A stretch of 64,000 nucleotides of DNA from Candidatus Saccharimonadales bacterium (GCA_035713075.1 DASTAD010000025.1:10568-74567), one strand, 5' to 3'. Shown: positions 35,393 to 55,998, numbered from the stretch's first letter. Program-made: numbers and translations. Notes: generated by a model not told the origin, from the letters alone.

Positions 35393-36334
35393 TTAGAGCT
35401 CTTCTAATTTTTGCAGCTGTACCGAACCGCGGGCAACGTAAATGTATGCTCCGGCTATGACGATCAGCAGCAGGTAAATGATAATCAGCAGGAAGTTAAG
35501 GTGAAATTTGACAAGTGTCGTAGATATCGATTGCAAGCTCCTGAGCAGCATCGTAATCAGGATCGTCCCGGATATGCCGATAGCGAAGGTTTTGATGCCA
35601 TTTTTGTAGATTATGCCTTTTACGTTGTTCCTGAATACGAAGAGGTTGTAGACCGCTTGAATCCCGAGGAACCAATAGCATAGCCGGGGAATAAGCACCG
35701 TCAGTGTAATCAGCCAATCCGGCTCATAATATGTGGCTACGGCTACACCGTCGGCAGGATAGCGGCGCGACGGATCGTGGAGCGCAAGCATGACGTAAAA
35801 AGAGGCGTAAGCGATGAACAGTAAGATTATGGGCAATGAGGCGCTGAATTTGGTATCGGAAATGACTTTTAATAATCTCTGGGATCCCAGATAAATCAGG
35901 TAAAATCCGACAAGCAGAAGCAGCAGATCGATATATACTTGAAGTCTTACCAGGCTTGCGGTAGAGGCCGGATGGCCAGTGTAGTATTGCTTAAAAAAGT
36001 TAGTCATAACTGACGATATAGGCAGCCATAACACAAGCAAGAATAAACCTTGCGATAAGGTAAAGAAGCCCTGTCCGTCTTTCTCGCCTCTAATTTTAGT
36101 GGCGTAATCGCGAAGCCTGAGAAAACCATAAAACGCTATTAGCCAAATAACGACGTAGGGAATTTCAATCGTCAGTAGCAATAATTTCAGATGGCCAGCG
36201 GTTATGTGATACAGGTGCAGCGTGCTTGGGTTAGGCGGGACGACGAGTGATTGGTAGAGATAAGCAACAATAAGAAGCAGATAAATTAAACTTATTCGGT
36301 TATGTTGCCTGAAGAGTTGCCAGATATTTTTCAT
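35393..36334 (-). CDS. polytopic membrane protein of unknown function
   Basis: 313 aa with 8 TM segments or more. Contains one copy of the 39-bp repeat (codons for LYHITAGHLKLL). Confidence 0.5.
   Translation of the reverse strand: MKNIWQLFRQHNRISLIYLLLIVAYLYQSLVVPPNPSTLHLYHITAGHLKLLLLTIEIPYVVIWLIAFYGFLRLRDYATKIRGEKDGQGFFTLSQGLFLLVLWLPISSVMTNFFKQYYTGHPASTASLVRLQVYIDLLLLLVGFYLIYLGSQRLLKVISDTKFSASLPIILLFIAYASFYVMLALHDPSRRYPADGVAVATYYEPDWLITLTVLIPRLCYWFLGIQAVYNLFVFRNNVKGIIYKNGIKTFAIGISGTILITMLLRSLQSISTTLVKFHLNFLLIIIYLLLIVIAGAYIYVARGSVQLQKLEEL
36178..36216. repeat. 39-bp perfect inverted-repeat copy A (partner at 55739-55777)
   Basis: The reverse complement of 36178-36216 is ACCTGTATCACATAACCGCTGGCCATCTGAAATTATTGC, identical to the plus strand at 55739-55777. 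Confidence 0.9.
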
Positions 36335-36422
36335 TGCTAGGCCAAATTAAGCCGCTCCCTGCGTCGTATTAGATATGTAAGTAAATATTCTAATACAACC
36401 GGTGATTTAAATCTACGCCGCT

Positions 36423-36818
36423 TTAAACTGTAGGCAGTTGACTTAAAATTAAATGCCTTTGGCGAGGTCCATCGAGTTCTACCAAAACGATACGCTGCCA
36501 GGCCCCTAGATCAAAGTCAGAATTTTTAAATGGCAAGCTAAGCGACGCTCCTAAGATAAAAGACCATAGGTGGTCCGGAAAATGCTCCGGTTGATGAGGG
36601 TGCCTCCATTTTAGCTGAGGGGTTAATTTCTCAATTGCAGCGAGATAATCTGCGTCAGTTCCGGGGTCCATATCGGCTATAGCGACCGCGGCAGTCGTAT
36701 GCTTAATAAAAACATGGGCTATGCCGTCGCCGGATAATTGGCGGGAAAGCAGATCGGTTATATCAATGACCTGCCTTTTTTTAGTTGTCGAAACAGTTAT
36801 TTCCATGTCTGCCATCAT
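36423..36818 (-). CDS. yjbQ: YjbQ/UPF0047 family protein (secondary thiamine-phosphate synthase)
   Basis: VFIKHTTAAVAIADMDPG and HPHQPEHFPDHL motifs of UPF0047. Confidence 0.8.
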   Translation of the reverse strand: MMADMEITVSTTKKRQVIDITDLLSRQLSGDGIAHVFIKHTTAAVAIADMDPGTDADYLAAIEKLTPQLKWRHPHQPEHFPDHLWSFILGASLSLPFKNSDFDLGAWQRIVLVELDGPRQRHLILSQLPTV

Positions 36819-36952
36819 GAACGTTTAATCAGGGAAACTCAGCGTCAAATCCCACACCTGTCATTAAAATTATTACTGAAGTCTTTCCTTTAAAGGAACT
36901 ATTATCTCTCATAGATGAGGATATTTACTAAGTAAAACAATGGGAGTGCTAG

Positions 36953-37222
36953 ATGGTTAAAAAATGGTCGGGGGATGTTACTCAAAATAGCGACGCCTTG
37001 GATTTGGAGGAAGGCGTCTTTACTCTAAATGACCCCCGCCAGATCGCCAGGTCTTTGAAATACTCAGCCGAAGTCAGCAAGCGCAGGAAAACCGATCCCT
37101 TTCGCTCGGCCATGTCGATGCTTAATTTTTACATAAACCGCGGCGGAGATAATATACCCGCCTCCCAGCTTAGAATCTTAAATCAAGCTAAGGTTGAACT
37201 AAGGAAAGAGTTTGGTCGATAA
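36953..37222 (+). CDS. DUF3175 domain protein
   Basis: SDALDLEEGVF...DPRQIARSLKYSAEVSKRRKTDPFRSAMSMLNFYINRGG matches the DUF3175 pattern. Confidence 0.75.
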   Translation: MVKKWSGDVTQNSDALDLEEGVFTLNDPRQIARSLKYSAEVSKRRKTDPFRSAMSMLNFYINRGGDNIPASQLRILNQAKVELRKEFGR

Positions 37223-37338
37223 GGCCAGATAATCACTTAAGCCTTTAACATATTAGGCGGGTGGTATCAATTAGAAAACCGTATACAAAAAATAAGGGTT
37301 GTCTTATATAATGTGGCGACATATAAAGAGGCAAAAAA

Positions 37339-38535
37339 TTGGAACATAAAACCGTTTCTACGACGACGAAATCACTGAAGGTGCGCCATGAACGCGCCAT
37401 GGTCGAACTGGAGCGTTATAAGATTCTCGTCGATACCATTGAAGACTACGCTATTTTTTTTATCGACCCTGTAGGCTATATCATGTCATGGAACCGGGGA
37501 GCCCAGAAGACCAAAGGCTATACCGAAGACGAGATAATCGGCGAGCATTTTTCGAAATTTTATCTTGAAGATGACGTGATCGCTAAAAAGCCCGAGCGTG
37601 AACTTGAGCTGGCGCTGAAAATGGGACGGGTAGAGGATGAGGATTGGCGGGTTCGTAAAGACGGATCGACATTCTGGGCGAATGTCGTCATTACTGCCCT
37701 CTATGACTCCAACCATAACCATATTGGTTTCGCGAAAGTGACCCGTGACTTAACTGAGAGGAAAATCCATGAGGACGCCCTCAGAAAAGCCAATACCCAG
37801 CTGGTGTCTCAGCAGCAAGAACTGGAGCGACTAAACGTTTCGAAAGACGAATTCATTTCTCTCGCCTCGCATCAGCTGAGGACCCCCTCGACAGCGATAA
37901 AGCAACTTCTTGGCATGCTGAAGGAAGGTTTCTACGGCGAAATACCCGACGATATTCAAACTGTTATCACAAAGGCCTATACAAGCAATGAGAGGCTCAT
38001 AAACACCGTTAACAGCCTGCTTAGAGTTGCTCAACTCGATGCCGGTAAGGTGATACTGAAGAAAGTGCCAGTCAATATGGGCCAGTTGCTTCACGATATC
38101 TACGAGGAACAAGCTGATACTATTAAAAGCCGTAACCAGGAATTTAAATTATCCTTGCCGGTTAAGCAGACCGTCCATATGGAAGCCGATTACGATAACC
38201 TCCGTATGGCAATCAGCAATCTGCTAGACAATGCCACTAAGTACACGTCCGAAGGCGGCAAAATAGTCGTATCATTAAAGCGGGAAGCTAAAAAAATAAC
38301 TATCTGCGTGCAGGATAACGGCGTGGGCATAAAAAAACAGGACATCAATAAGTTGTTTGAAAAGTTTGTCCGCATACCTAATGAACTTTCGCAAAAAGTT
38401 GGCGGCAGCGGATTAGGTCTCTATTGGGTAAGAAAGATTATCGAGCTTCATGGCGGCAAAATTAAAGTCGCTTCCGATAAAAAGAACGGAACCCAGTTCA
38501 CGATTATCTTTCCTGTTGACAGTTCCTATGCGTAG
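37339..38535 (+). CDS. PAS-domain sensor histidine kinase (cytoplasmic)
   Basis: PAS region (GYIMSWNRGAQKTKGYTEDEIIG), H-box SHQLRTP, N-box LLDNATKYT, G-boxes DNGVGI and GSGLGL. TTG start after AAAGAGG. Confidence 0.88.
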   Translation: MEHKTVSTTTKSLKVRHERAMVELERYKILVDTIEDYAIFFIDPVGYIMSWNRGAQKTKGYTEDEIIGEHFSKFYLEDDVIAKKPERELELALKMGRVEDEDWRVRKDGSTFWANVVITALYDSNHNHIGFAKVTRDLTERKIHEDALRKANTQLVSQQQELERLNVSKDEFISLASHQLRTPSTAIKQLLGMLKEGFYGEIPDDIQTVITKAYTSNERLINTVNSLLRVAQLDAGKVILKKVPVNMGQLLHDIYEEQADTIKSRNQEFKLSLPVKQTVHMEADYDNLRMAISNLLDNATKYTSEGGKIVVSLKREAKKITICVQDNGVGIKKQDINKLFEKFVRIPNELSQKVGGSGLGLYWVRKIIELHGGKIKVASDKKNGTQFTIIFPVDSSYA

Positions 38536-38902
38536 GATACTGGTCGTCGAGGATGACGACCTACTTAGAGAAAGCTACAAGATAATATTGTCATCTGGGC
38601 CCTATTTCGTCGAAACGGCCGAAAACGGAAAAGTTGGACTTCAAAGATATAAGCAGAACAATTATGACTTAGTGCTTTTAGATATCATGATGCCGGTGAT
38701 GGGAGGAGTCGAATTTTTAAAAAGCGTAGCTTCCCTACCGCGGAAGTCAAAAATAATCTTGCTGACTAACCTGTCTGACGGACCGGAAGTTGAAGCCGCC
38801 CTTAAAGCCGGCGCCGTGGGACATCTCTTAAAAGCTGATATTTCTCCGAAACAGCTGATAAGTAAAGTGCGTTACGAAGTTGAAGCAACCCGATATGATT
38901 AG
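38528..38902 (+). CDS. stand-alone response-regulator receiver domain
   Basis: MRRILVVEDDD, LVLLDIMMP, and no output domain. The ATG at 38528 overlaps the kinase stop by 8 nt. Paralogous to 27119-27544. Confidence 0.85.
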   Translation: MRRILVVEDDDLLRESYKIILSSGPYFVETAENGKVGLQRYKQNNYDLVLLDIMMPVMGGVEFLKSVASLPRKSKIILLTNLSDGPEVEAALKAGAVGHLLKADISPKQLISKVRYEVEATRYD

Positions 38903-39062
38903 GGTCCTTATAATAAATTTAAGTGGTATCAATCGCCCTTAGAGGCCTCAAAAGAATATCCTCACCACTGTTAAACAGCAGTAAAAGTTAAATTCTTCAT
39001 AGTGAAATCTAAGCGTTACCCATATTCTTAGGGTTACAGTAAACAAGGAGGCACATAACAGT

Positions 39063-39329
39063 ATGAGCATAATAGTATTTTTAATCCTAGGTGGAATCGT
39101 CGGCTGGATAGCTGCCAGGATAATGGGACGAAACGAGGGAATTTTAGCTAGTATAGTTATTGGTATTATCGGATCATTTATCGGTAGCTTTATCGCCAGG
39201 TTATTTACCAACGGTACATCCTACCTGTCGCTGAACTGGAGCGGAATTCTTTGGTCTCTAATCGGGGCGGTTATACTGGTGGCGATTATGAACGCCTTCT
39301 CGCACCCCCGGCACCATCACGTACAGTAA
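39063..39329 (+). CDS. GlsB/YeaQ/YmgE (transglycosylase-associated) family stress membrane protein
   Basis: 88 aa. ILGGIVGWIAARIMG and GIIGSFIGSFI repeats. Strong SD (AAGGAGG). Confidence 0.75.
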   Translation: MSIIVFLILGGIVGWIAARIMGRNEGILASIVIGIIGSFIGSFIARLFTNGTSYLSLNWSGILWSLIGAVILVAIMNAFSHPRHHHVQ

Positions 39330-39355
39330 TTAAGTTTTTAGGGTCTAGAATAAAG

Positions 39356-39385
39356 ACCGCGTCTAACCGATAGGCGCGGTTTTTC
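39356..39385 (+). terminator. rho-independent terminator
   Basis: ACCGCGTCT-AACCGAT-AGGCGCGGT is a 9-bp stem (one G-U) followed by TTTT, 27 nt after the stop at 39329. Confidence 0.65.
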
Positions 39386-39446
39386 ATATATGTACTCTTA
39401 ATGGAAATCAGCCCTTATCGGTAAAGCGCGCAAGAATTAATTCTTT

Positions 39447-41168
39447 TTAATCAGCGTCTACTGGCGCCGGTTCAAGCGGCTTATCCCCATGCATATATTT
39501 ACCTCCGCGCATCCAGGAAGCGACGGCGGCGACTAAGCAAGCGACTATGGCGAAGCTAAGGACGACGATTAAGCCGTGCTTAAATGGCTGCCCTATCATC
39601 TGAGGAAAGTATTCCTTGGAGGTTAATTTAGAGCTGGCAGTGGGACTCAGTTTACTCAGCACGTTAGGGCCGAGCAGTGTTTTAAGCGGGTTGTAACCTA
39701 AGAAGGCGGCGAAAAGATAGCTGATTGCCGGCAAGTGCGATAGCTTCCCGGCCAGTGCCGCAGAGACGCCGTTCGTTGTCAGACCGTGATAAATGCTTGC
39801 CGGAACAGTAGCCGTCAAGCCGATGATCATGAGGCTAAAGAAAATACCTATCGATAACGGCATCCCGACATTCATGAATGTCGCCCGCATACCCGAGGCT
39901 ACGCCGCGGTTTTCCGCCGGCACGGAATTCATTATCCCGGCCGTATTTGGCGAAGAGAACAATCCGAAAGCCATTCCGTTAAGCAGCAGGATGCCCGCGA
40001 AGGGTAAATACGGGAAATTGACTGGCAGCAGCATCATCAGCCCAAAGCTCAAGGCCGCTAGAATCATGCCGCCGGTGGCGAAAGGACGGGCGCCGTACTT
40101 ATCCGATAGATATCCTGATATTGGCCCGGCTATAAGGAAACCGATGGTTGTCGGTAGCATATATATCCCCGCCCATAACGGCGTGTTAGAAAAGGCGTAA
40201 CCATGAAGAGGCAGCCATATTCCTTGGAGCCACATTATCAGCATGAACTGTAATCCTCCCCTGCCCATAGCTGCGGTCAGCCCAGCTATATTTCCGGCGG
40301 TGAAGGCTCTGATGCGAAACAGACTAAGGGCGAACATCGGCTCCTTAACTTTGCTTTCGATAAACACGAATAATCCGAGAATTAGGAGACCGGCGACTAT
40401 CAGTTCGATCACCATCGGATTTGCCCATCCCATTGCCGATGAACCATATGGCCTAATGCCGTAAGTGATGCCGATCAGTAAAGATCCTAAACCGACGGCG
40501 AAAGTTATATTGCCCAGCCAATCGATCTTGGCTTTATGGAACTTATCTATTTCCTGGAGGGCTATAACCGACCATATCGTCCCAATTATCCCTATAGGGA
40601 CGTTGAATAAGAAGACCCAGCGCCAAGAGAACTGCGCCAGGAAACCGCCGACGAGTATGCCGACGAACGACCCGGCTAAGGCCGCTATCTGATTTATTCC
40701 TAGTGCCATGCCCCGTTGATCTGAGGGAAATGCGTCAGTTAAGATGGCCGCCGAGTTGGCCATTAACATCGCTCCGCCTATAGCCTGGATCATGCGCGAG
40801 AAGATAATCTCCAGTGCCCCGCTCGTGCCATGGCTCCAAGTCGCGGCCGCCGCCAGGGCCCCTAGAGTGAAGATAATGAAACCGAGGTTGTACATTTTTA
40901 CTCTGCCGAACATATCCCCTAACCTGCCTAAGGAAACGACGAATATGGCGGTCACCAGCATGTAACCTAAGAGTATCCATAACAGATAGATAAAGCTGCC
41001 GGGGCTGAGTGGATTTATTCGTATGCCGCGGAAAATGACTGGCAGCGCTATTATCAGGCTGGTGGCGTTCAGGGCGGCCATCAGTATTCCCAAGGTTGTA
41101 TTGGATAGGGCAATCCATTTGTAATGGGGACTCTGTTTATAGGTGTGATTAAGAATTTTTTGAAACAT
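39447..41168 (-). CDS. MFS transporter, DHA2 (EmrB/QacA-like, 14-TM)
   Basis: 573 aa, about 14 TM segments, motif A-like GRLGDMFGRVKMY. Confidence 0.85.
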   Translation of the reverse strand: MFQKILNHTYKQSPHYKWIALSNTTLGILMAALNATSLIIALPVIFRGIRINPLSPGSFIYLLWILLGYMLVTAIFVVSLGRLGDMFGRVKMYNLGFIIFTLGALAAAATWSHGTSGALEIIFSRMIQAIGGAMLMANSAAILTDAFPSDQRGMALGINQIAALAGSFVGILVGGFLAQFSWRWVFLFNVPIGIIGTIWSVIALQEIDKFHKAKIDWLGNITFAVGLGSLLIGITYGIRPYGSSAMGWANPMVIELIVAGLLILGLFVFIESKVKEPMFALSLFRIRAFTAGNIAGLTAAMGRGGLQFMLIMWLQGIWLPLHGYAFSNTPLWAGIYMLPTTIGFLIAGPISGYLSDKYGARPFATGGMILAALSFGLMMLLPVNFPYLPFAGILLLNGMAFGLFSSPNTAGIMNSVPAENRGVASGMRATFMNVGMPLSIGIFFSLMIIGLTATVPASIYHGLTTNGVSAALAGKLSHLPAISYLFAAFLGYNPLKTLLGPNVLSKLSPTASSKLTSKEYFPQMIGQPFKHGLIVVLSFAIVACLVAAVASWMRGGKYMHGDKPLEPAPVDAD

Positions 41169-41758
41169 TACTTCGCCTTTTCTATTTTATCCGGCTGGTT
41201 GCCTCCCTCCCCCGCGCTAATCCATTGGCTAGAGTTCAAAACCGCCGCTTGGCGGGGAAAAACGCGGCTGATGAGAAGTTCATGTACTTGCTGGTCGAAA
41301 TCGACGCATAAGTCTTCCAGAACACTCAATTTAAAATCTTTGTCTGCCGCCTCGCGGACAGTCGATAAGACGACTCCACTTGTTGCTATGCCGCAAAGAA
41401 CTAAGTTGGTTATACCGTTTGATCTTAAGATCATCTCCAGATCACTGCCGCTAAACGCGCTCACGCGCTTTTTTTGTATCAAGATGTCATTGTCTGTCAG
41501 CGACAACATCGGCATTGGATTAATCAAGGCGTCGTCCTGGGAAGAGGCTTTTATTGCCGAAAAAGACTTGTTTGTCAGATTGATTTCTGGCATGCCTTTT
41601 CGAAAGCCAACGACAATATAAATAACCTTAATCTCATTTTTATGAGCGTAGTCAACGGCTTGACTGACTCTTTTTAAATACTCGTCTTGATTGTCGATTC
41701 GCTGGACGATCGACGGCTGGACGTCCTTAACCAGCAATGCGCTTTTTTCTTGGCTCAT
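41168..41758 (-). CDS. isochorismatase-family cysteine hydrolase
   Basis: ALLVKDVQ and the nucleophile context LVLCGIATSGVVLSTVREA. Confidence 0.8.
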   Translation of the reverse strand: MSQEKSALLVKDVQPSIVQRIDNQDEYLKRVSQAVDYAHKNEIKVIYIVVGFRKGMPEINLTNKSFSAIKASSQDDALINPMPMLSLTDNDILIQKKRVSAFSGSDLEMILRSNGITNLVLCGIATSGVVLSTVREAADKDFKLSVLEDLCVDFDQQVHELLISRVFPRQAAVLNSSQWISAGEGGNQPDKIEKAK

Positions 41759-44598: not shown

Positions 44599-44607
44599 GA
44601 GAAAAAC

Positions 44608-47267: not shown

Positions 47268-48260
47268 ATGAGCCATGAACGATTAGGTGATCTTATTACA
47301 AATAACCGGGCAGCAGTAGCTGCAAGCGTTGCGGTCCTGGCACTTGGAGCAGGGGCAACTCTTAGAACCAATACCGCCAAAGCCGACACTGTAACCGACA
47401 CGCCGGCAGAGTGCATGGCCGACGGGTTGTATTCGCTTACTGGTGGCATGATGCAAATTGATTCAACAGGCACAATTACTCAGCTGGAAGTAGCTGGAGC
47501 GGCATTGCCAGCGGATTGTGACGGACAAGTCTGGCGCACTGTCACTGTCGAGCAGCTTGCCGGCACAGATCCACAAAACCTATCTCCCAATACAAATTCG
47601 TATGATGTTTTTGATGGCAATGGCGCCTTTGATAACACGATCAACGCGCAGATGATTAACCCTTACGCCTGCGGAACTTATTACCAACAAGAAACTACTT
47701 TTTCGGTAACTACTGTCAGTCCTAATGCAGGTTTAGCGCCAGAAAGTAAGACCTACTTGAGTACAGAGTCTGAGCAGAATTGCCAACCGGCAACCACTGG
47801 CAGCGGAAGCGGTGCACCTAGTGGCAGCGGTTCGGGAACTACTGTATCGCCACAGCCGAGCGAGGCTCAGAAAATAAAGAGCTGTGAGATTGACGCCGTA
47901 GATAGCGTCCGCTACATCTCGATGCAGTATCTTAAGCCGGCACATCATCAGTACAAACGGGTCAGACAAATTGTTAAAGCCGACGCTTTACCGAAGTCCT
48001 GCGATAATCTTGTTCAGAGGAAAATAGAAGTCCAAGCCAGATTAGGCCGAAAGGGTCACGTTAAACCTGATAGTCGTTACGAGACACTTGATACCCGCGA
48101 TGGAAAGATTTACGAATACATCAATCAAACACTAAAGCACGCCTGGAGAAGCGGCGAGAAAACCCAGCAGGCAGTAAAAGTTATTGCTACTCCTATGAAG
48201 GCTTATGACGGCTACGGCGTTAAGCCTATGACTAAACAGTACTTCACTAAAGCCGCCTAA
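47268..48260 (+). CDS. secreted two-domain hypothetical protein with Gly/Ser linker
   Basis: Signal/anchor AAVAASVAVLALGAGA. Central TGSGSGAPSGSGSGTT linker. A duplicated Cys-containing motif (ALPADCDGQVWRTVTVEQ and ALPKSCDNLVQRKIEVQ). The ATG at 47268 follows GAAGGAAGAG. Confidence 0.55.
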   Translation: MSHERLGDLITNNRAAVAASVAVLALGAGATLRTNTAKADTVTDTPAECMADGLYSLTGGMMQIDSTGTITQLEVAGAALPADCDGQVWRTVTVEQLAGTDPQNLSPNTNSYDVFDGNGAFDNTINAQMINPYACGTYYQQETTFSVTTVSPNAGLAPESKTYLSTESEQNCQPATTGSGSGAPSGSGSGTTVSPQPSEAQKIKSCEIDAVDSVRYISMQYLKPAHHQYKRVRQIVKADALPKSCDNLVQRKIEVQARLGRKGHVKPDSRYETLDTRDGKIYEYINQTLKHAWRSGEKTQQAVKVIATPMKAYDGYGVKPMTKQYFTKAA

Positions 48261-48631
48261 GTTTTAGTAGCACATTTAGAGACTTGGACGCTAGAAATGT
48301 GCGGAGTGTATTCGGATTAATTTAAAATAGCTTCATGCATATGCGGCATCAATGCTATAGGGCGTTAATTAGGAATCGCTATTTTACTTCAGGACGGTTG
48401 TATGGGTTGACTACATTCAATTAAAGCGGCGGACTGGTAACCGGCTGCTTGGCGGCTAAATGTCTGGCTTTTCCTAGTAGAGTACGGTTATACAGTTATC
48501 TTTCTGCGCCACTAGCATTAGCTGTACAGCCTTTGAAATCAGTTATGATCTTAAGATAAGCCCCGCAAGTTTTTAAGAACGTTGCCCCGTTAGAAGAAAA
48601 AACAAGCCCATTAACTAAATCAGTTTTTATA

Positions 48632-49309
48632 TTACCCGTCGGTAAAATGATATCGGAAGCTATAGTGGCCGATGCTCCCAGGCTGCCAATTTTTAGATGA
48701 TTGGTATAATCCTTTCAAAAAATTTTGTTTTTGTAGATCATTGAGACTTTGGTTATTCTTATGCACTTCGCAGAGAGCTAATGTACCAAGCCATAAGGAC
48801 GTGTTCAGCCGGTGTTGATCTTCTACTTTAGCCATTTCAGAATCGACCTCGAGCACAACTTTATAAGATTTCGGAAAAAGAATCGGAAAAAGGCTAGTCA
48901 GTTTATTTTTCTTCTTTTTATTTAGCATTATTGATATAGGCTGGTTAAGCCCGGCAGCGCTTGCTCCATCTACTAGCTTTAAATAGTTAGCATCAACTGT
49001 TGCCGGCTTTTCGAATGGAGCTAGTGGGCCCGAACTTAATATAGGAACCAAAATGCCAGTTTCTTCTAGCTCAGTCGATTTTCCATATTCTGTTTCGCAG
49101 ATCAGTTCCACCTGCCGTGAAGGTGGTGACGTGATTCTTAGTTTTCGGATCCTATTGATAATGTAATTATGAATATTATATTTACGATTTGCTAACTTCC
49201 ATCTGACATTGTTAAAGTTCATATTAGAAATTTCAAACTCATGATTATCTCTTACCTGCCAACCGGATGTATTAATAGCATCGATGAAACTACTTGATTC
49301 TTGTGGCAA
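48632..49309 (-). CDS. island orphan protein (225 aa)
   Basis: ORF only. TTG start is uncertain (the next Met is at 49222). No recognisable motif. AT-rich. Confidence 0.4.
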   Translation of the reverse strand: MPQESSSFIDAINTSGWQVRDNHEFEISNMNFNNVRWKLANRKYNIHNYIINRIRKLRITSPPSRQVELICETEYGKSTELEETGILVPILSSGPLAPFEKPATVDANYLKLVDGASAAGLNQPISIMLNKKKKNKLTSLFPILFPKSYKVVLEVDSEMAKVEDQHRLNTSLWLGTLALCEVHKNNQSLNDLQKQNFLKGLYQSSKNWQPGSIGHYSFRYHFTDG

Positions 49310-49475: not shown

Positions 49476-49506
49476 GGTCCCTCCCTTAGTGGGCGACCTT
49501 TGCAAC
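49476..49506 (-). promoter_or_regulatory. island intergenic motif, copy 1
   Basis: Gene-strand reading is GTTGCAAAGGTCGCCCACTAAGGGAGGGACC. It lies just downstream of the terminator of the preceding unit and about 170 nt upstream of the 225-aa ORF. Confidence 0.7.
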
Positions 49507-49552
49507 ATTAATGAAGAAGTGCCATATTGTAAGTTTTTATTAGTTCCGAATT

Positions 49553-49574: not shown

Positions 49575-49596
49575 TCTTTAGTGTTTTATTAAGACC

Positions 49597-49917
49597 TTAA
49601 TTTGGTAGCGTACAGTCCCCAGAAACAGCTGAGTTATTATAACCAGCTGCACCAGTGCCAGCGGGCACCCCGCCACCTATGCTACGTGCAGTACCATCAG
49701 TACCAAGAGTACCAAAATTACCGTTTGTGTTCGCAAAGGCACCGTGACAATATCCGCTCGAGCTTGTGGGCCCGTAATATTGGTTCACACCTGCTGCAAA
49801 AGTAGCGCCACTTGCGCCGGCCACAATAGTTGCTGTTGCAATAACTCCATATATGTATTTCTTTGTATTAGTTTTAATCTTTTCAACACCAGTTTCTACT
49901 TTATAAATGTAGTTCAC
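49597..49917 (-). CDS. small secreted Gly-rich two-Cys peptide (bacteriocin-like)
   Basis: The SD AAGGAGG sits 5 nt upstream of the GTG at 49917. Signal-like KKYIYGVIATATIVAGASGATFA-AG. The mature part is about 63 aa, Gly/Ser/Thr/Asn-rich, with Cys near both ends. Confidence 0.6.
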   Translation of the reverse strand: MNYIYKVETGVEKIKTNTKKYIYGVIATATIVAGASGATFAAGVNQYYGPTSSSGYCHGAFANTNGNFGTLGTDGTARSIGGGVPAGTGAAGYNNSAVSGDCTLPN

Positions 49918-49982
49918 GGACACCTCCTTGGTTAGTATTTAATATTATAATCCTCTGCGTCAAATATAGTATGTACTCATTA

Positions 49983-50020
49983 TGCTTATGCTTGCTCCAC
50001 CTAGTGGACGTACTTCGAAC
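49983..50020 (-). promoter_or_regulatory. island intergenic motif, copy 2 (extended)
   Basis: Gene-strand reading is GTTCGAAGTACGTCCACTAGGTGGAGCAAGCATAAGCA. It shares an extra 13 nt (GCAAGCATAAGCA) with copy 3. Confidence 0.8.
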
Positions 50021-50028
50021 TTTTGTGA

Positions 50029-50280
50029 TTACTCCCTATGTTCAATCAACCCTTGTTTAAGGGACTCAAACGCCTCATTCTTAAGGTCTTGCCCGACTTT
50101 TTGTTTTGCGGCCCATTGTTCTGGTGTAACATCAGCTTCTGTAATTCTGTCGGGAAAATGCTCGAGTGTTTTTTCATCAAGCTCAAACATACATGCAGCT
50201 AGACGCCCCACTTCCTCGGGCGTCAATGGCTCTTCACCTACCGGTAACGCCTCGTCAGGCAATGGCCCTTCATATTGCAT
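50029..50280 (-). CDS. island small acidic protein (83 aa)
   Basis: ORF with ATG start, no SD, highly acidic (PDEALPVGEEPLTPEEV...). No family recognised. Confidence 0.45.
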   Translation of the reverse strand: MQYEGPLPDEALPVGEEPLTPEEVGRLAACMFELDEKTLEHFPDRITEADVTPEQWAAKQKVGQDLKNEAFESLKQGLIEHRE

Positions 50281-50315
50281 AGATCTAAAATATCAAAAAA
50301 GCACTAAATACAAAT

Positions 50316-50355
50316 TGCTTATGCTTGCATCCCTCTAGTTGACGTTCTTTGCAAC
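50316..50355 (-). promoter_or_regulatory. island intergenic motif, copy 3 (extended)
   Basis: Gene-strand reading is GTTGCAAAGAACGTCAACTAGAGGGATGCAAGCATAAGCA. Its distal edge is 75 nt upstream of the ATG at 50280. Confidence 0.8.
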
Positions 50356-50362
50356 TATAATA

Positions 50363-52657
50363 CTAATCGAGTTCGATCTTAGAATAATATATTTCAAGTG
50401 GTGGTTTAGATGGATCGTAATTTTCTCTTACATAAGTAGAGTTCCTTTGTTTACCAGTTGGGTCAAGTGTTTTAAGCCTTTCGCTTTCCTTGGCCAAATC
50501 TCTCATTTGTTCCTCAAGGCAATACCTAGCTTGCTCCTCACTAAACACGAATTTTTTGCCATCAGTTTCTCGTATCCTTAAATAAGCGTAATGCCCCATG
50601 TTGGCCGATTTACCATTTTCATCATTAATAAGGCCTTCGGAAGTATCAATTTCGTTAGCGCATGACCACTCTTTTACCAATTTGAGTATAAGATTTTCAT
50701 AGTAACCTTTCATGGTAGGTATTCCGAAGCTCATCGGGCCACTGTCAGTAATATAAAAATCGCGATCAAGCTTTAGCTCAACGATACCATCGTCTAAATA
50801 AAATGACGATATAATGCGGTTTTGTGTTGGGTCGTAGCGTAAGTTCACGGATTCCAAGCCTGTTTCTTTAAGATTCTTCGGCATAACAAACTTTAACGAC
50901 CGGCGCCCTAGAAAACGTTTTTGCTCTTCTCTAATAGTTTGCCTCAAATGGTTGTTTGCTTCATCCATATCTTTACTGATAGCTTCTGCGGTGTCAAAAG
51001 AAGAGCTCGGGGTGCTATTATCGCGGGATATATGCCTTGCATAATTAATTAACAACAATTGCAAAGGGGTATGAGTTTTTATATCCGTTGCTATACAAGG
51101 CCTATAAATAGTGATGCCGTCTACATAAACCTTTTCACCCAAAGGTTTATAAACTAGATGCATCCTGCCTGTTTTTTCAAAGCTACTGATCCCTAGCTCA
51201 TTAGCCATTAGTGCAACTCCCAATATCTCAGCAGTGAGACCGCCAGCTCGCTCTTGCATTTCTTCAGCCTCATTTTTTGGAGTAGGCCACTGCTTAGTCG
51301 GGAAATAAATATCTACAGCGAGGGTAGGGCTAAGAGGTAAAGACAGACCGTCAACACCTCCTTTTAGATGCCTTGAATCGGCACCGGCGGCACTTTCTAT
51401 TATTTGCATAGCTGCCATCACGCTATACGCATAAGGTGCAAAATGTTGCATGCGCTTGTGAAATAGCTCCGATTTAAGCGATAACGCTTCTAGCTCATCT
51501 GGCATCTGAATTTGCCCGAACTCAAGCTGGTCACCTTCTATATGACTTATAATTACCGGGTCGAAAGCCATTAGCCCTCTTTCACTTTTCTCAGCCAGAT
51601 CTAGCAGCAACTTATGAGTAGGCCCATAGATCCTACTGCTGCCATGTCTTTCTTGATGCAGTCTTGTAATTGCATCTTTTTCTTTTTGTGTACTCTCAAA
51701 ACCGATACCAGTAATATACTGGTTTAAATTATCAAATATTGTCTTTGTCTGCGCTGCATCAACAGCAGCTTGCAAATCGTTGTTTCCGTAGAACGATGAG
51801 TCAACTTCTTTCATGACTGCGTATATATAAGTAGACGACATATACGGCTCAACTAAAGAGGCTATCCGTACAATCTTACTCAATGCCGGCTGATTATCAA
51901 GTAGCTCAAATGAGGCACGGGCTAGATTATTATGGATTGCTCCGAAATTAGGTATATTATACCTAGTTGAAAAAATACTCTTTAAAATCGCTTCGAAATT
52001 TGGAGCACTGGGCTGGCCTTGAACGGATCCTTCAATTATTGCAGCAAAATTATTTGGGTTAGCCGTAACTGCCCCACCATGCTTTTCTGCATAATTGGCG
52101 CTACTTAAGAAAATTTCATCCGCTAGCTCAGCGTCGTCGCAAAGCCTGGAAGTAATAAAATCCAATAGGTCTGCTCGAAGTACTACATGTTTATCGCCAG
52201 TAACATCACTGAAGTCCGTAAATTGTCTGGCGAACTGGCGTTTAGCTAGATGCTCTTGGTGTTCACGTTTCGACCGTTTTTTGGTTGTAATTTTGCCTAG
52301 GTCAACTTGATACTGCTCGTAGTCTTTAGCGTATTTTATTCTAACTTTTCTGCGTAGCTGTTGTTCCGGTGTAAGTATGATGGGCTGCTCGGGTACGTTT
52401 GGCTCAATGAGATTTTCATCTTTACTGTCGGCCTCATCAGATACATCGGCTTTTTGCTCAGCAAGTTGGATTAATTGTCTTGCCAAAACTCCAATTTGCT
52501 CCTGAGTTCGAGTAGATTCGGCATATTCAGGCTGCAACTTAAACTCTTCCTCATACCACGAACGAATATGGGGATCTGGTTCAGCAGCTAAATCTTGACT
52601 AAACTCATTTAAAAACTCGTGCGACTCACCGACGTTCACAAAATAAAAATAACACAT
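50363..52657 (-). CDS. island large orphan protein (764 aa)
   Basis: Uninterrupted 2.3-kb ORF. Acidic coiled N-terminal region. No P-loop, polymerase, nuclease or HTH motif that I can recognise. It starts 13 nt after the 84-aa ORF. Confidence 0.6.
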   Translation of the reverse strand: MCYFYFVNVGESHEFLNEFSQDLAAEPDPHIRSWYEEEFKLQPEYAESTRTQEQIGVLARQLIQLAEQKADVSDEADSKDENLIEPNVPEQPIILTPEQQLRRKVRIKYAKDYEQYQVDLGKITTKKRSKREHQEHLAKRQFARQFTDFSDVTGDKHVVLRADLLDFITSRLCDDAELADEIFLSSANYAEKHGGAVTANPNNFAAIIEGSVQGQPSAPNFEAILKSIFSTRYNIPNFGAIHNNLARASFELLDNQPALSKIVRIASLVEPYMSSTYIYAVMKEVDSSFYGNNDLQAAVDAAQTKTIFDNLNQYITGIGFESTQKEKDAITRLHQERHGSSRIYGPTHKLLLDLAEKSERGLMAFDPVIISHIEGDQLEFGQIQMPDELEALSLKSELFHKRMQHFAPYAYSVMAAMQIIESAAGADSRHLKGGVDGLSLPLSPTLAVDIYFPTKQWPTPKNEAEEMQERAGGLTAEILGVALMANELGISSFEKTGRMHLVYKPLGEKVYVDGITIYRPCIATDIKTHTPLQLLLINYARHISRDNSTPSSSFDTAEAISKDMDEANNHLRQTIREEQKRFLGRRSLKFVMPKNLKETGLESVNLRYDPTQNRIISSFYLDDGIVELKLDRDFYITDSGPMSFGIPTMKGYYENLILKLVKEWSCANEIDTSEGLINDENGKSANMGHYAYLRIRETDGKKFVFSEEQARYCLEEQMRDLAKESERLKTLDPTGKQRNSTYVRENYDPSKPPLEIYYSKIELD

Positions 52658-52669
52658 TTAGTGCTAAAG

Positions 52670-52924
52670 TCAATACTTTTTAAACTGGCAGTCACTAAGT
52701 TCGCCTATGGGCTCGTATTGATAAAGTCGCTGAACGTCAACTTCTGACAGGTTAAGCTGCTCGTCTCTTATAATCCTCGCTAAGTTAGAGGTGTAGTCTA
52801 TCCAATCTTTATCATCCGGTATCTTAAAAGCATCTTCAACACGCCATTCTGATATTGGCTCATATGGACCGTGTATTACGGGCATAGACCCGGTAAAGTC
52901 AGGAGGGGTAGTTGTTTCTCCCAT
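52670..52924 (-). CDS. island small acidic protein (84 aa)
   Basis: ATG start with no SD. The hexamer AATAAT lies 7 nt upstream of the ATG. Confidence 0.45.
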   Translation of the reverse strand: MGETTTPPDFTGSMPVIHGPYEPISEWRVEDAFKIPDDKDWIDYTSNLARIIRDEQLNLSEVDVQRLYQYEPIGELSDCQFKKY

Positions 52925-53185
52925 AATACTTATTATTCTGCACCATCTGAAGATAGATGCAAGGGCAAGTTAGCTAGAACCGACCAGAAAGGCCAGAGTT
53001 AAAGAGAAACTTCTTGCGAGGCGGATCTGTATCTATTAGATATATGAAATTTGCTCTGGCAGTAGCCCAGAATGTATTCAAAACACGTAAATTAATGGGA
53101 GGATAGAAAATAGCAAACCAAACTACTTATATAGATAAAAATATAAGGGTTGGAAGTGAGCTGAAACAGGCTCAGCGTTCTATTT

Positions 53186-53212
53186 GGGTCCCCTATTGGA
53201 CGCACTTCGTAC
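53186..53212 (-). promoter_or_regulatory. island intergenic motif, copy 4
   Basis: Gene-strand reading is GTACGAAGTGCGTCCAATAGGGGACCC. It lies immediately after the stop of the 151-aa ORF and about 260 nt upstream of the 84-aa ORF. Confidence 0.7.
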
Positions 53213-53667
53213 TAGTTGGTGGGTTTCTTGGGATGATTCAACCGATCTAAATGATGTACAAGTATTGTTGCGGGATGCGGCTGATCAGTTAACGCGCTGT
53301 TAATAATGCGGCGCCGGTCTTCCGTTATATCAAGCATATTGTGCAGGAAAATGTCTCGGGAATCATCGGTTGGTAGCTTGTCATGACATATAGCCATTAC
53401 CTCCCTGCCAAATTCAGTTACTCTGATCATAGTGGCTGCTGACTCATCCCCAGGATTTCTAGCTAATTTTAGTGAGCTGCTTTCATGGTCAGCGTAATTG
53501 ACAAGCCCGTAGGCTTCCAATAATGCTGCGGTACCGAAAGGCTGGACGCCAAGATTCACTCTAGCCTGCTCGTCAGGTACACTTGCCAGGAACCCGAGCC
53601 GTAGTATGACATCATAAGGCAATGAAGCCGCAACCTGTTCAGGTGACGAATCTTCGTAATTTGACAT
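53212..53667 (-). CDS. island 151-aa protein, possible winged-helix DNA-binding fold
   Basis: I prefer the ATG at 53667 (MSNYEDSS...), because the ORF-track TTG start at 53754 would read through motif copy 5. LLEAYGLVNY...ATMIRVTEFGREVM resembles the MarR-type helix-wing pattern. Weak. Confidence 0.45.
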   Translation of the reverse strand: MSNYEDSSPEQVAASLPYDVILRLGFLASVPDEQARVNLGVQPFGTAALLEAYGLVNYADHESSSLKLARNPGDESAATMIRVTEFGREVMAICHDKLPTDDSRDIFLHNMLDITEDRRRIINSALTDQPHPATILVHHLDRLNHPKKPTN

Positions 53668-53713
53668 AACTGAAATTATACTATATGAGCTGAGAATCAA
53701 AAGTGTATATGGT

Positions 53714-53743
53714 GGGCTCCCCTTAGGGGACGTACTTCGCAAC
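53714..53743 (-). promoter_or_regulatory. island intergenic motif, copy 5
   Basis: Gene-strand reading is GTTGCGAAGTACGTCCCCTAAGGGGAGCCC. Its distal edge is 76 nt upstream of the ATG at 53667. Confidence 0.8.
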
Positions 53744-53802
53744 TTTGAAGACAAGATTGAATGCCTAGTCGTATTTAAATTCCTTAATAAATTTGCGCTT
53801 CC

Positions 53803-54561
53803 CTATATGTAGGACCTTTGACGCAAGTCGTTCTTTCGTTTGAGTGATGCGAACGCTTTTACTAGCATTTTCGTGTCAACGGGCTGAGTTTCTTCGCCGT
53901 TGTCTATGCCATCATCTACAGCATCGGCGATCACTCCCTCGATGGCCACTTTTAAGTCGGCCCCAGTTAAGCCATCGGAAACTGCAACCAGTTCTGAGAC
54001 ATCAATACCATTGAACACCGGTACCTCTGCTCTATTGGTAAAATACTTCACCCATTTTGTAATAATTTCGGCTCTACCCTCTGTGCCTGGCGGACTAACT
54101 TCCATCACTTCGTTAAAGCGGCCAGAGCGTATTACGGCTGCATCTACATTAACTGCGTCATTTGTTGCCCCAAGGATTAGGCAGTTAGGGTAATAGTCAT
54201 TCAACGCTGTCAAAAATTCGCTCGTCATTTTGCGCTCCCAAGTCATCATGTGCATACCGCCCCTAGAAGCTGCCAGCCCTTCAAGTTCATCAATTAGCAG
54301 GACGACATTATGTTTTTCACCGAGAACCTTGAGCAAATCAAATAATCCAGCAATGTTCTTCTCGGCCTCGCCTGCCCACATACTTTCAATATCGCTAACT
54401 TTGGCTGACAAATAAATGTCTCCTACCTCATGTGCAGCAGCATCAGCCAACATTGTTTTACCACATCCTGGCGGCCCAATTAGTAGTCCTGTTAACTTGG
54501 GTGAAATCCCAGCTTGCAAGTACCGCTCAGGATATTTTGCTCGCTTTACAAGTCTTTGCAT
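53803..54561 (-). CDS. AAA+ ATPase module (classic clade, Cdc48/FtsH-like), 3' part of a frameshifted gene
   Basis: Walker A GPPGCGKT, Walker B VLLIDELE, sensor-1 region ILGATN, arginine finger region VIRSGRF. Confidence 0.85.
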   Translation of the reverse strand: MQRLVKRAKYPERYLQAGISPKLTGLLIGPPGCGKTMLADAAAHEVGDIYLSAKVSDIESMWAGEAEKNIAGLFDLLKVLGEKHNVVLLIDELEGLAASRGGMHMMTWERKMTSEFLTALNDYYPNCLILGATNDAVNVDAAVIRSGRFNEVMEVSPPGTEGRAEIITKWVKYFTNRAEVPVFNGIDVSELVAVSDGLTGADLKVAIEGVIADAVDDGIDNGEETQPVDTKMLVKAFASLKRKNDLRQRSYI

Positions 54562-55679
54562 CTGCTTTTTTCATCAGACAGCCCACCCACCATATCGAAT
54601 GTTATTTCAGGGACTGGCTGTACAGTCTGCAGGAACAACTCTCGTTGCCTATTATCATTTACTTCTTGGGGCACTTCTTTATGTTTATCCTTATCCTTAT
54701 CGAGGTATTCGTCTTTTAGGTCTTCGCCTTCGTGCTGATTAGCGCGGGGATGAAATATCATTTCCGGCAATGGTTCATCAAGCCATGTTCTATTGAGATT
54801 TTCAAGTATTTGAGGAAAACTGCGCTGCAATAGAGCTAACTGCATATTAAGCCTATCTTCCAGTGTTTTCCTCCGAACTTCGGTTTGAACGACAGATTCT
54901 TTATCGTCCTTTTCAACAGGCAGGCCCTTAAATCCAAACTTTATTAAGTAAGTAAGCCCTGCTAATTCTGTGGTTAGGACTTCATCCTCTGCTTCCCCTG
55001 CCCAGTACGTTCCAACTCCGCCGTCTTCGCGAGCAAAGTGCCTAGGTTCGCGAGCGCCACCAGTTGGATCTAAGTCCTCAACCACATATTTGATACCAGC
55101 TAATTTTGCAATCCCAGTAGAACCACCTATGAAAGCTGATGGTTTAAACGCGACTGCTGCAACCATATGAGATGCCGCAGTGTATGGGTCTGATTCAATT
55201 GAGATTTGCAAGCGCTCCATAGCGCTATGTTCATAAGGCTCAAAAGCCTTGACTGCGGACCATCTATTTTTTGGTGACCTGCCTCTGTGCCTAGTTTGTG
55301 AGGGCTTTGCCATCCCTTCGATAAAATCATCCCTGTCCTCGAACTCTATGCGAAGCGCAGTATTATAAACGTGCTCTTGTAGCTTTGCTTGAACGGCCGG
55401 ATCGCTGAGGTCGGGTAATTCTTCTTCCTCACCTGCTAGCTGTAACAAGACACTTATTGTTTCAACTGAATCCTCTCGCCTTTTGGCGGCTTCCCTAAGA
55501 GCCGTGGGTACGCTAAGTGCGCCAAGATGGTGAACAATGCCGATGACTTCCTCGTATAAGGCATGCTCAGCTTCTTCTAGCTCGTGATCCTCGGCTTCAA
55601 TGTCTGATCTTGTGTCTGGAAATTCCTCGGGAGTGTCGCTCATTCCCATAGTATCGCTAAGACTACATGATTTTTGCAA
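54546..55679 (-). CDS. N-terminal unknown domain of the same AAA+ protein, 5' part of a frameshifted gene
   Basis: It ends in ITFDMVGGLSDEK, the conserved pre-Walker-A element of classic AAA+ modules. The likely start is the ATG at 55649 (MGMSDTPEEF), not the TTG at 55679. Confidence 0.7.
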   Translation of the reverse strand: MQKSCSLSDTMGMSDTPEEFPDTRSDIEAEDHELEEAEHALYEEVIGIVHHLGALSVPTALREAAKRREDSVETISVLLQLAGEEEELPDLSDPAVQAKLQEHVYNTALRIEFEDRDDFIEGMAKPSQTRHRGRSPKNRWSAVKAFEPYEHSAMERLQISIESDPYTAASHMVAAVAFKPSAFIGGSTGIAKLAGIKYVVEDLDPTGGAREPRHFAREDGGVGTYWAGEAEDEVLTTELAGLTYLIKFGFKGLPVEKDDKESVVQTEVRRKTLEDRLNMQLALLQRSFPQILENLNRTWLDEPLPEMIFHPRANQHEGEDLKDEYLDKDKDKHKEVPQEVNDNRQRELFLQTVQPVPEITFDMVGGLSDEKSRCKDL

Positions 55680-55738
55680 GCATTAGCGAAATAAATATAA
55701 TAATTGTGTAGTATAATTTCGCCGTATGGACCACGCTT

Positions 55739-55777
55739 ACCTGTATCACATAACCGCTGGCCATCTGAAATTATTGC
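55739..55777. repeat. 39-bp perfect inverted-repeat copy B (partner at 36178-36216)
   Basis: ACCTGTATCACATAACCGCTGGCCATCTGAAATTATTGC. An extra CACGCT match lies just outside after a short mismatch/indel. Confidence 0.9.
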
Positions 55778-55995: not shown

Positions 55996-55998
55996 AAT

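Follow-up and report, generated by a model that had tools for sequence, protein, structure and literature searches.

A 39-nt segment inside the remnant of a large serine recombinase (LSR) gene in a Candidatus Saccharimonadales MAG is an inverted copy of part of a membrane-protein gene 19.5 kb away. This copy is probably a recent, strain-specific mutational scar, left by a microhomology-mediated template switch or by break repair with a templated filler. The patch takes the place of LSR codons 7-405 (about 1.2 kb), and the donor gene remains intact. The following features of the window, that is, the whole 64,000-nt stretch of DNA that was analysed, are referred to throughout.

35393..36334, minus strand: intact 313-aa multi-pass membrane-protein gene, the patch donor; no Pfam family
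36178..36216, minus strand: donor copy of the 39-mer, membrane-protein codons H40-L53; identical 39-mer in strain 2 (contig L006)
48400..55725, mostly minus strand: low-GC island cargo, with genes of 225, 108, 764, 84 and 180 aa and others
55673..55718, plus strand: promoter-like elements upstream of the kept LSR start, TTTGCA-17-TATAAT
55726..55743, plus strand: kept LSR start, ATG and codons 2-6 (MDHAYL); nearest intact homologues read MKAYLLARVS
55732..55743, plus strand: apparent left-junction (imperfect) microhomology, island CACGCT-T-ACCTG versus donor CACGCT-GC-ACCTG
55739..55777, plus strand: derived copy of the 39-mer, probable templated filler bridging the internal LSR deletion
55778..56040, plus strand: kept LSR 3' end, codons 406-492, the C-terminal tail past the coiled coil
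55999..56073, minus strand: tRNA-Asn(GTT), target of integration; the LSR ORF runs antisense over its 3' 42 nt
56128..56595, minus strand: smpB, chromosomal flank of the integration site; adjoins tRNA-Asn in relatives also

Results

Two coding sequences share a unique inverted repeat

The arms of the repeat, 36178-36216 and 55739-55777, are 39 nt long, 100% complementary (39/39) and 19,522 nt apart. The perfect inverted repeat reported in the earlier note is therefore real, and it is the only one of its sort in the window: with up to 3 mismatches allowed the 39-mer occurs there in two copies only, and all remaining inverted repeats reach at most 34 nt and at most 86% complementarity. Shuffling the sequence 100 times produced 0 matches, with an expectation of 0, in agreement with the earlier judgement that a chance match of this length is negligible. 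Each copy lies in frame and encodes LYHITAGHLKLL, as had been described; the in-frame state of the patch has a chance of 1/3 and says nothing for or against selection. As for the further CACGCT match said to flank the repeat, the hexamer is present at both loci, but its spacing to the repeat differs by one base (GC at the donor, T on the island).

The island copy interrupts a recombinase remnant

The ORF at 55726-56040 (104 aa) is what remains of a 492-aa LSR. Homology to recombinases resumes at R18 of the ORF, equivalent to R406 of the 492-aa homologues, so that identity to the membrane-protein gene ends at 55777/55778 precisely where recombinase homology begins (codon CGG), as first noticed. 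Relatives read ...AAT AAG/CGT ATT AAT ATC GAA CAA across this position and the window ...TTA TTG/CGG ATC AAT ATC GAA CAA. At the other end, the window starts ATG GAC CAC GCT TAC CTG, compared with ATG AAA GCT TAC CTT in L115 and ATG AAA GCA TAC CTG in L103. The proposed loss of about 400 aa is thus confirmed as the absence of codons 7-405, but the gene has not just lost its 5' end: the ATG and codons 2-6 are kept on the left side of the patch. The kept start lies behind the promoter-like elements listed above and a second TATAAT 7 nt ahead of the ATG, and similar start-proximal TATAAT boxes occur in several intact LSR genes.

A profile search with the LSR tail retrieved 3458 relatives, the full-length ones about 495-520 aa long, and the match falls on C-terminal residues ~355-500 of full-length LSRs. 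Domain scans of six relatives (P0034, P0037, P0038, P0041, P0026 and P0025) returned Resolvase, Recombinase and Zn_ribbon_recom, with only the latter ones in those cut N-terminally; Recombinase and zinc beta-ribbon domains were found in P0034, P0037, P0038 and P0041. The C-terminal part of the remnant matches other remnants with E-values from 1e-36 to 1e-14, and the nearest intact LSR is 79% identical in the tail. Pfam gave no match in the 104-aa ORF, in which resolvase catalytic, Recombinase and zinc-ribbon domains are all absent; the element is therefore immobilised. Judged by its sequence, the ORF is an in-frame chimeric pseudogene and not a functional LSR.

The earlier note proposed a search for intact homologues of the recombinase and a look at the equivalent position, and both are now available. 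Intact 492-aa LSR genes overlap tRNA-Asn in the identical manner in L092, L093, L096, L098 and L103, and the intact LSR of L092 occupies the same tRNA-Asn-smpB chromosomal site. In the window the LSR stop codon TAA sits within the tRNA-Asn anticodon loop. The island cargo includes an IetA-like AAA ATPase (252 aa) and a 377-aa gene. Its left border, defined as the point where identity to strain 2 falls from 99-100% to about 79%, yielded no tRNA-derived repeat. The 39-mer was also considered as an attL/attR pair and rejected: the repeat is inverted, not direct, and one arm lies 12 kb outside the island in a host gene while the other lies inside the recombinase ORF.

A separate observation concerns the recombinases themselves, which belong to a widespread LSR family whose ORF runs antisense through the tRNA CCA end and stops in the anticodon loop. 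This tRNA-reading family is a more general by-product of the analysis and may merit separate study.

The reads contain the repeat, and a sister strain lacks the patch

The window derives from a MAG built from short reads, which lends some weight to the reading that the island copy is an assembly artefact, arising where a shared k-mer made a contig or reads chimeric, with only the membrane-gene copy real. Run SRR25158217, from which the window comes, was also assembled by Logan at k=31, and that assembly served as an independent check. Its contigs are 99.99-100% identical to the window (one mismatch, in L087) and break off within each copy after k-1 = 30 nt: L003 ends at 55768 and L087 starts at 36187. 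Because k=31 contigs break exactly 30 nt into each copy, as they would at a true repeat, the reads contain the repeat. The left junction, ...CACGCTT/ACCTG..., is present in the Logan assembly as well, while the right junction (55777/55778), ...TTATTGC/GGATCAATATC, comes from the MAG assembly alone, a point that favours the artefact. The 104-aa ORF is likewise absent from protein collections, but so, in a control, are the products of genes cut by contig ends. Since the patch lies between two unrelated flanks, an artefact would need two false joins 39 nt apart; moreover, both junctions are in frame at sensible apparent microhomologies, and the kept gene ends are collinear with intact homologues. 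As regards the left junction and the existence of the repeat, the artefact suspected earlier is thus largely refuted, and we consider it improbable overall.

Strain 2 (run SRR33230254) is 99.76-99.91% identical to the window. Its contig L006 passes unbroken through the membrane-gene 39-mer, and its assembly graph therefore holds no second copy. With the two copies in the window 100% identical and the second copy missing from the sister strain, the patch is, on the evidence of these sequences, recent and strain-specific.

The patch was copied from the membrane-protein gene

The segment that supplied the patch aligns with homologous residues in 13 members of the membrane-protein family, and because it is conserved across that family the direction of copying was from the membrane-protein gene to the island. 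The donor locus has not changed: the gene is intact at 313 aa, the 39-mer is identical in strain 2, and the neighbours on both sides are the same genes in the relative L001 (70% identity). At least 34 nt of the patch (55744-55777, or to 55775) are donor-derived beyond ambiguity.

Microhomology appears to mark both junctions (ACCTG and an imperfect CACGCT at the left one, C or GC at the right one), as reconstructed from homologues at most 79% identical and not from a direct ancestor. Within the left junction, GCTTACCTG also matches the A-Y-L codons in the start region of intact LSRs. Alternatively, the CACGCT flank could belong to a 47-nt copy later mutated (GC to T).

We propose that an element with a 492-aa LSR, integrated at tRNA-Asn beside smpB, lost codons 7-405 in one event. 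A DNA 3' end, arising from a break or a stalled fork, would have halted at ...ATGGACCACGCTTACCTG, LSR codon 6, and paired with the near-identical CACGCTGCACCTG on the membrane-gene coding strand, 19.5 kb off and in the opposite orientation. Extension of ~34 nt along the membrane-gene template would have been followed by return to the LSR gene at codon 405/406 via a 1-2-nt match (C or GC), giving the in-frame 104-aa ORF with a filler of 34-39 nt. The donor gene, only read and not cut, would therefore still be intact. As for enzymology, either a template switch during replication or synthesis-dependent end joining may have been responsible.

The same end product, a deletion with a short distant insert in either orientation, would arise if end joining had closed a double-strand break in the LSR gene and taken up a free 39-47-nt membrane-gene fragment (for example of degradation or Okazaki type), with no template switch. 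The CACGCT flank could then belong to a captured 47-nt fragment that mutated afterwards. But the insert appears to begin at one LSR microhomology, GCTTACCTG, and to finish at another, C or GC at codon 405/406; microhomology at insert ends is predicted by annealing-primed synthesis, not by blunt capture; the intact donor locus also speaks against a captured fragment. Capture is accordingly an unlikely origin. Of the recombination scar suggested in the earlier note, the illegitimate event survives, given the internal LSR deletion, the membrane-gene filler and the apparent junction microhomology. The recombinase-mediated version does not: no change is seen in the source gene, and the junctions lie within the LSR coding sequence instead of at an att site.

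The repeat shows little sign of function

A 19.5-kb segment that inverts between the two arms was a further suggestion. RecA or an unlinked invertase would flip the segment, swapping the membrane-protein promoter and N-terminus (MDHAY followed by residues 41-313) and fusing the first 52 residues to the LSR tail; an inversion polymorphism would appear as the linkages TATGGACCACGCTT-R-TACTGACG and CACGCTGC-R-GGATCAAT. The perfect inverted repeat that flanks the segment, in frame in both ORFs, and the promoter-like site upstream of the island copy suit such a switch, and a repeat of 39 bp is near the minimal length for homologous recombination. Against it, no invertase lies in or beside the segment, and among the genes between 36 and 56 kb the sole recombinase match is the remnant, which has no catalytic domain. 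Unlike known invertons, the segment holds housekeeping genes (gdhA, cfa, an MFS transporter and a two-component pair). The MAG contig is unbroken at the repeat, and strain 2 lacks the second arm. The membrane-gene arm was seen in the assembled orientation only, whether in the MAG, strain 2 (L006) or the relative L001: L006 and L001 both join the N-terminal flank of the gene to the gene body as in the window, a comparison for which the island arm has no counterpart. Finally, the island arm is fully accounted for as deletion filler. Working inversion sites are thus very unlikely. A rare RecA-driven inversion across the 39 bp is nevertheless conceivable and, as a speculative extension, the in-frame repeat could now be a low-frequency RecA-dependent inversion switch; if so, inversion would give the membrane protein a new promoter and N-terminus.

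The idea of a target-gene mimic found no support. Such a 39-mer would work as a decoy RNA, as an antisense regulator, as an immunity tag resembling a spacer or as a pseudo-attachment site, and what speaks for it is perfect identity with a host gene and a nearby promoter-like site, nothing else. The adjacent promoter would yield sense RNA, not antisense; a CRISPR repeat, a cas gene and a reverse transcriptase are all absent nearby; and serine-recombinase att sites have no more than a central dinucleotide in common, while the att of this element lies at the tRNA end. A similar patch was present in none of 30 related LSR loci, nor in the Logan relatives L002 and L091. We regard a functional mimic as hardly credible. 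Two related candidates were rejected separately. The island proteins contain no RT domain and the repeats are 100% identical, without adenine-specific differences, which excludes a diversity-generating retroelement. As for a CRISPR spacer, there is no repeat array around 55739-55777 and, except for the IetA-like ATPase, no cas or defence match.

Discussion

Filler DNA is known from microhomology-mediated deletion junctions attributed to FoSTeS/MMBIR and synthesis-dependent MMEJ (PMC6902434; reviewed in PMC12426944), and a 'microhomeology' signature has been described for human PLP1 rearrangements (PMC6902434). As in these cases, the deletion here is bridged by a short inverted stretch identical to a sequence elsewhere, the donor is intact, and both switch points seem to carry short perfect or imperfect microhomologies. 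The well-studied cases are eukaryotic, those of the Pol theta type usually copying within about 100 bp, whereas the present one is in a Saccharimonadales (CPR) bacterium of reduced genome, with the donor 19.5 kb away; fillers copied from such a distance are documented mainly in eukaryotes. In our literature search we found no natural bacterial example of such long-range templated filler.

For bacteria, template-switch mutagenesis at quasipalindromes and inverted repeats is described by the Ripley model. There too, a short imperfect match lets a nascent strand move to a template of opposite polarity, from which it copies a stretch before returning, and a perfect inverted repeat results. Classical cases correct a quasipalindrome that is already present and act over tens to hundreds of bases, while this one spans 19.5 kb and includes a 1.2-kb deletion. 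Whether the scar is a record of MMBIR/TMEJ-like template switching in CPR/Saccharimonadales, primed by microhomology, inverted and over a long range (19.5 kb), and caught within about 0.2% divergence of a sister strain without the patch, we judge to be an evenly balanced question.

Invertons and shufflons, in which an invertase drives DNA inversion between inverted repeats (PMC7672463), share with the present case a perfect inverted-repeat pair within coding sequences and in frame. They differ from it in that here there is no invertase, both orientations are not seen, 19.5 kb of housekeeping genes lie between the arms, and one arm is absent in the sister strain. Among large serine recombinases (phage and ICE integrases with Resolvase, Recombinase and Zn_ribbon_recom domains and a coiled coil), the remnant is recognised by its tail, 55778-56040, homologous to residues 406-492, and it shares the start-codon region and the tRNA-Asn site with intact LSR elements; compared with functional LSRs, all its catalytic and DNA-binding domains are deleted.

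The scar is tidy but ordinary, and by itself it opens no new biological question. It calls for caution in annotation: the 104-aa ORF is a pseudogene chimera, and the 39-bp identity should not be taken for a regulatory or a mobile repeat. The scar also provides a clean, dated example of an integrative element fixed in a genome once its recombinase gene was gutted in a single event, and indicates that scars left by templated-filler repair can be recognised in an ultra-small CPR genome, for which the repertoire of repair functions is little known.

The 39-nt repeat and its two genes

Reverse-complementing 36178-36216 gives exactly the plus-strand sequence of 55739-55777, ACCTGTATCACATAACCGCTGGCCATCTGAAATTATTGC, in agreement with the perfect 39-nt inverted repeat reported in the earlier note. 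With up to 3 mismatches allowed, these are the only two copies in the window; 100 dinucleotide-preserving shuffles gave 0 matches, and the remaining inverted repeats across the 64 kb are at most 34 nt long and at most 86% complementary. The exact 30-mer core had 0 matches in both genome_contigs and metagenome_contigs, and neither the 104-aa ORF nor the 313-aa membrane protein had a record in exact-product look-ups. Both copies are indeed read in frame, giving the same LYHITAGHLKLL in the 313-aa and 104-aa ORFs. Chance alone predicts such an outcome one time in three, and selection therefore need not be invoked. The flanking CACGCT match is present but offset by one base (donor CACGCT-GC-ACCTG versus island CACGCT-T-ACCTG).

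Features of the two arms, the segment between them and the adjoining tRNA locus
35393-36334, minus strand: donor ORF, 313 aa, housing one arm
Between the arms: UPF0047/YjbQ protein; DUF3175 protein
Between the arms: PAS histidine kinase; response regulator
Between the arms: MFS transporter; isochorismatase
Between the arms: gdhA; cyclopropane-fatty-acid synthase
Between the arms: NAD(P)HX dehydratase; aldo-keto reductase
About 48.4-55.7 kb: low-GC island, ORFs mostly without a family
49487-49512, 49994-50025, 50336-50361, 53186-53217 and 53716-53749: intergenic island motif copies
55673-55701: promoter-like boxes TTTGCA-17-TATAAT, upstream of the remnant ATG
55713-55718: second TATAAT, upstream of the remnant ATG
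55726-56040, plus strand: recipient ORF, 104 aa, housing the other arm
55999-56073, minus strand: tRNA-Asn(GTT), right of the island
Beyond tRNA-Asn, right of the island: smpB

The recombinase remnant and its intact relatives

From R18 onward the 104-aa ORF matches a family of large serine recombinases (LSRs; profile search, 3458 hits at E <= 0.001), aligning with C-terminal residues about 355-500 of full-length members of ~495-520 aa. In the six members scanned, the domains are Resolvase, Recombinase and Zn_ribbon_recom, with just the latter ones present in those that are N-terminally cut. A metagenome scan recovered intact 492-aa LSR genes of identical geometry on relatives' contigs L092, L093, L096, L098 and L103, the ORF running antisense into tRNA-Asn with a 42-nt overlap and a stop in the anticodon loop.

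The closest intact genes begin MKAYLLARVS, encoded by ATG AAA GCT TAC CTT TTG GCA CGA in L115 and ATG AAA GCA TAC CTG ATC GCA CGA in L103; the window reads ATG GAC CAC GCT TAC CTG and then enters the 39-mer patch (TAT CAC ...). Homology picks up again at the counterpart of R406 (of 492), where relatives read ...CAG AAT AAG / CGT ATT AAT ATC GAA CAA and the window ...AAA TTA TTG / CGG ATC AAT ATC GAA CAA. Because the retained start matches intact LSR starts and the tail resumes at R406, the deletion is internal, with codons 1-6 and 406-492 kept, codons 7-405 (~1.2 kb) lost and the 39-mer bridging the gap. The residue count fits (6 + 11 + 87 = 104), and the roughly 400 recombinase residues first noted as missing correspond to codons 7-405 of the intact 492-aa genes.

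Intact homologues, which the earlier note proposed to look for, include one at this chromosomal site. The L092 LSR, whose tail is 79% identical to the window remnant, is followed by tRNA-Asn, smpB and then the flanking genes of window 56.6-59.8 kb. Since gene order and flanking genes match, the same chromosomal site is occupied in L092 by an element with an intact recombinase and unrelated cargo. LSR remnants of differing lengths also lie beside tRNA-Asn in other lineages (L002, 145 aa; L091, 74 aa).

Several intact homologues likewise have a TATAAT box close 5' of the start. Within 90 nt upstream of the start, the intact genes of L092, L098, L103, L104, L106 and L115 share a conserved inverted repeat, GGGCGGTTGTG...(about 35 nt)...CCACAACCGTCC, just 5' of a Shine-Dalgarno-like site and the ATG, which could be a regulatory hairpin or binding site; it is absent from the window and from L094/L096/L113-type genes, which have the TATAAT box instead.

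In this large family of CPR recombinases, ORFs cross a tRNA gene's encoded CCA end in antisense, where TGG supplies the W of a conserved 'NWL'; those overlapping tRNA-Asn end at an anticodon-loop TAA (window 55990-56040; L092, L093, L096, L098, L103, about 6220-6264; proteins P0034, P0037 and others). Because homologues diverge directly past 'NWL' (L094, L104-L106, P0004-P0006), the integration target seems to provide the last ~11 residues, which excision would then alter. A brief look through the literature turned up no account of such read-through. A crossover at 56046/7, at first suggested by contig breaks inside the tRNA, was abandoned because the homologues diverge just past 'NWL', at the tRNA CCA end.

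The membrane-protein gene as donor

An NCBI entry of a Candidatus Saccharimonadales MAG (locus tag VFN51_02945) matches the 313-aa membrane protein at 100% identity; the protein belongs to a family of 14 members found, with no Pfam match. All 13 of 13 homologues align across the repeat segment (for example, window LHLYHITAGHLKLLLLTIEIPYV versus LHLYHLTSSSFKLLILSIEIPYV in P0012, 70% identity). The gene is intact, and the gene-order comparison called for earlier gave the same neighbours on both sides in the relative L001. The membrane gene is thus the donor, and the island copy is derived.

Both entrances into the repeat are present in the reads

An independent assembly was available as Logan contigs (k=31) of run SRR25158217, which match the window at 99.99-100% identity, with one mismatch in L087. 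Contig L003 (51725-55768) includes the left junction and ends exactly 30 nt (k-1) inside the island copy, and L087 (36187-47163) begins exactly 30 nt into the membrane-gene copy. Breaks k-1 into a sequence are how a de Bruijn graph behaves at a true repeat; because the contigs stop k-1 nt inside each copy, both entrances into the 39-mer are present in the reads. The assembly artefact raised earlier would need two false joins, 39 nt apart, and is contradicted at the left junction by L003; the right junction, ...GAAATTATTGC / GGATCAATATCG, is seen in the MAG assembly only. A search of the protein collection for contig-cut partial products of the right junction found none, and a positive control, the known partial product of L006, was likewise absent.

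Run SRR33230254 contains a sister strain, 99.76-99.91% identical to the window. The 39-mer occurs unchanged in the membrane gene on this strain's contig L006, which passes straight through it unbroken, so the strain's graph has no second copy. These data bear on the proposal that the 19.5-kb segment flips between the arms. The inverted state would link TATGGACCACGCTT+39-mer+TACTGACGATTG and CCAAGCACGCTGC+39-mer+GGATCAATATCG, but the membrane-gene arm occurs in the assembled linkage only, in the MAG, L006 and L001. With no invertase found, ordinary chromosomal genes, including housekeeping genes, in the segment and a sister strain without the second arm, an inversion switch is not supported; a rare RecA-mediated inversion across the 39 bp is possible.

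The island and its surroundings

Sister-strain contig L090 (run SRR33230254; compared over window 47600-49198) is 99-100% identical to the window until about 47.6 kb, then mosaic (83-99%) inside a 335-aa secreted-protein gene, and falls to ~79% from about 48.4 kb, which indicates a diverged island allele. The island and its left neighbour form a region that is prone to recombination and varied in its alleles, in strains that are otherwise almost identical. The patch itself is strain-specific and recent, consistent with the 100% identity of its two copies.

No intact sister element with matching cargo was found, viral contigs held no relatives of the island's 377-aa or 764-aa proteins, and a tRNA-Asn-derived direct repeat, sought at 46.9-50.5 kb as a left att scar, gave nothing convincing. 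One island ORF is an AAA ATPase of 252 aa moderately similar to IetA, of the IetAS defence system. It overlaps the 377-aa ORF by 16 nt (53803-55679, minus strand). The 377-aa protein has only two homologues, both distant and fused to an AAA domain, and these single proteins (P0172, 624 aa; P0173, 654 aa) are also the sole homologues of the pair, which may be a split or frameshifted gene. A 26-32-nt motif (consensus roughly CCTAGTGGACGTACTTCGCAACTTTG) occurs in five intergenic copies upstream of minus-strand island genes and probably serves as a promoter or operator specific to the island.

In both runs a Logan contig (L004, L005) ends at 56047/56048, within tRNA-Asn on the 5' side of its anticodon stem, which may reflect tRNA sequence common to other genomes in the samples or population heterogeneity at the site. 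In two other Saccharibacteria genomes (L008, L009; compared at window 10165 and 56131), smpB leads directly into homologues of window 10165 to 590, tRNA-Leu among them, with the intervening 46 kb (10.2 to 56.1 kb) placed elsewhere in those genomes. The tRNA-Asn/smpB site is therefore a genus-level synteny breakpoint; that rearrangement is unrelated to the 39-mer. Readings of the repeat as an att pair, DGR, CRISPR or RNA mimic each lacked a defining feature; a small-RNA reading was likewise rejected, and the target-gene mimic suggested previously found no support.

A probable templated patch across the deletion

At the left junction, the kept LSR codons GCT TAC CTG end in ACCTG, the repeat's first five bases; further upstream CACGCT is common to the donor across a one-base bulge, so that recipient end CACGCTTACCTG and donor CACGCTGCACCTG share 11 matching positions. 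Judged from homologues rather than a direct ancestor, this would be an imperfect microhomology. On the right, the repeat's final 1-2 bases (C or GC) are also supplied by the inferred ancestral AAG CGG. Because both repeat ends are shared with these microhomologies, the unambiguously copied stretch would be about 34 nt. The model supposes a pre-deletion LSR start ATGGACCACGCTTACCTG, with ...AAG CGG ATC AAT at codons 405-408.

The junction pairs a deletion with a short insert, in inverted orientation, that is identical to distant sequence; the donor is intact, and both switch points show apparent microhomology. Because these five features together form its signature, a microhomology-primed template switch is, with good confidence, the probable origin of the patch. 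Such a switch could be FoSTeS/MMBIR-like, made as the DNA replicated, or could belong to the repair of a break by synthesis-dependent end joining. As a result, the element can no longer excise. End joining that captured a free fragment would yield the same product but does not predict the microhomologies. Of the origins offered in the earlier note, a scar of illegitimate recombination fits best with an LSR deletion bridged by filler, with probable microhomologies at both junctions.

Rearrangement junctions with templated fillers and imperfect microhomology are well established, chiefly from eukaryotes (PMC6902434, PMC12426944). The patch is of the same kind, but its host is an unusual organism and the distance spanned is unusually long. 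At roughly even chances, the locus may naturally record template-switch repair acting over a long range in a CPR bacterium, and the new repeat might also play a secondary part in inversion.
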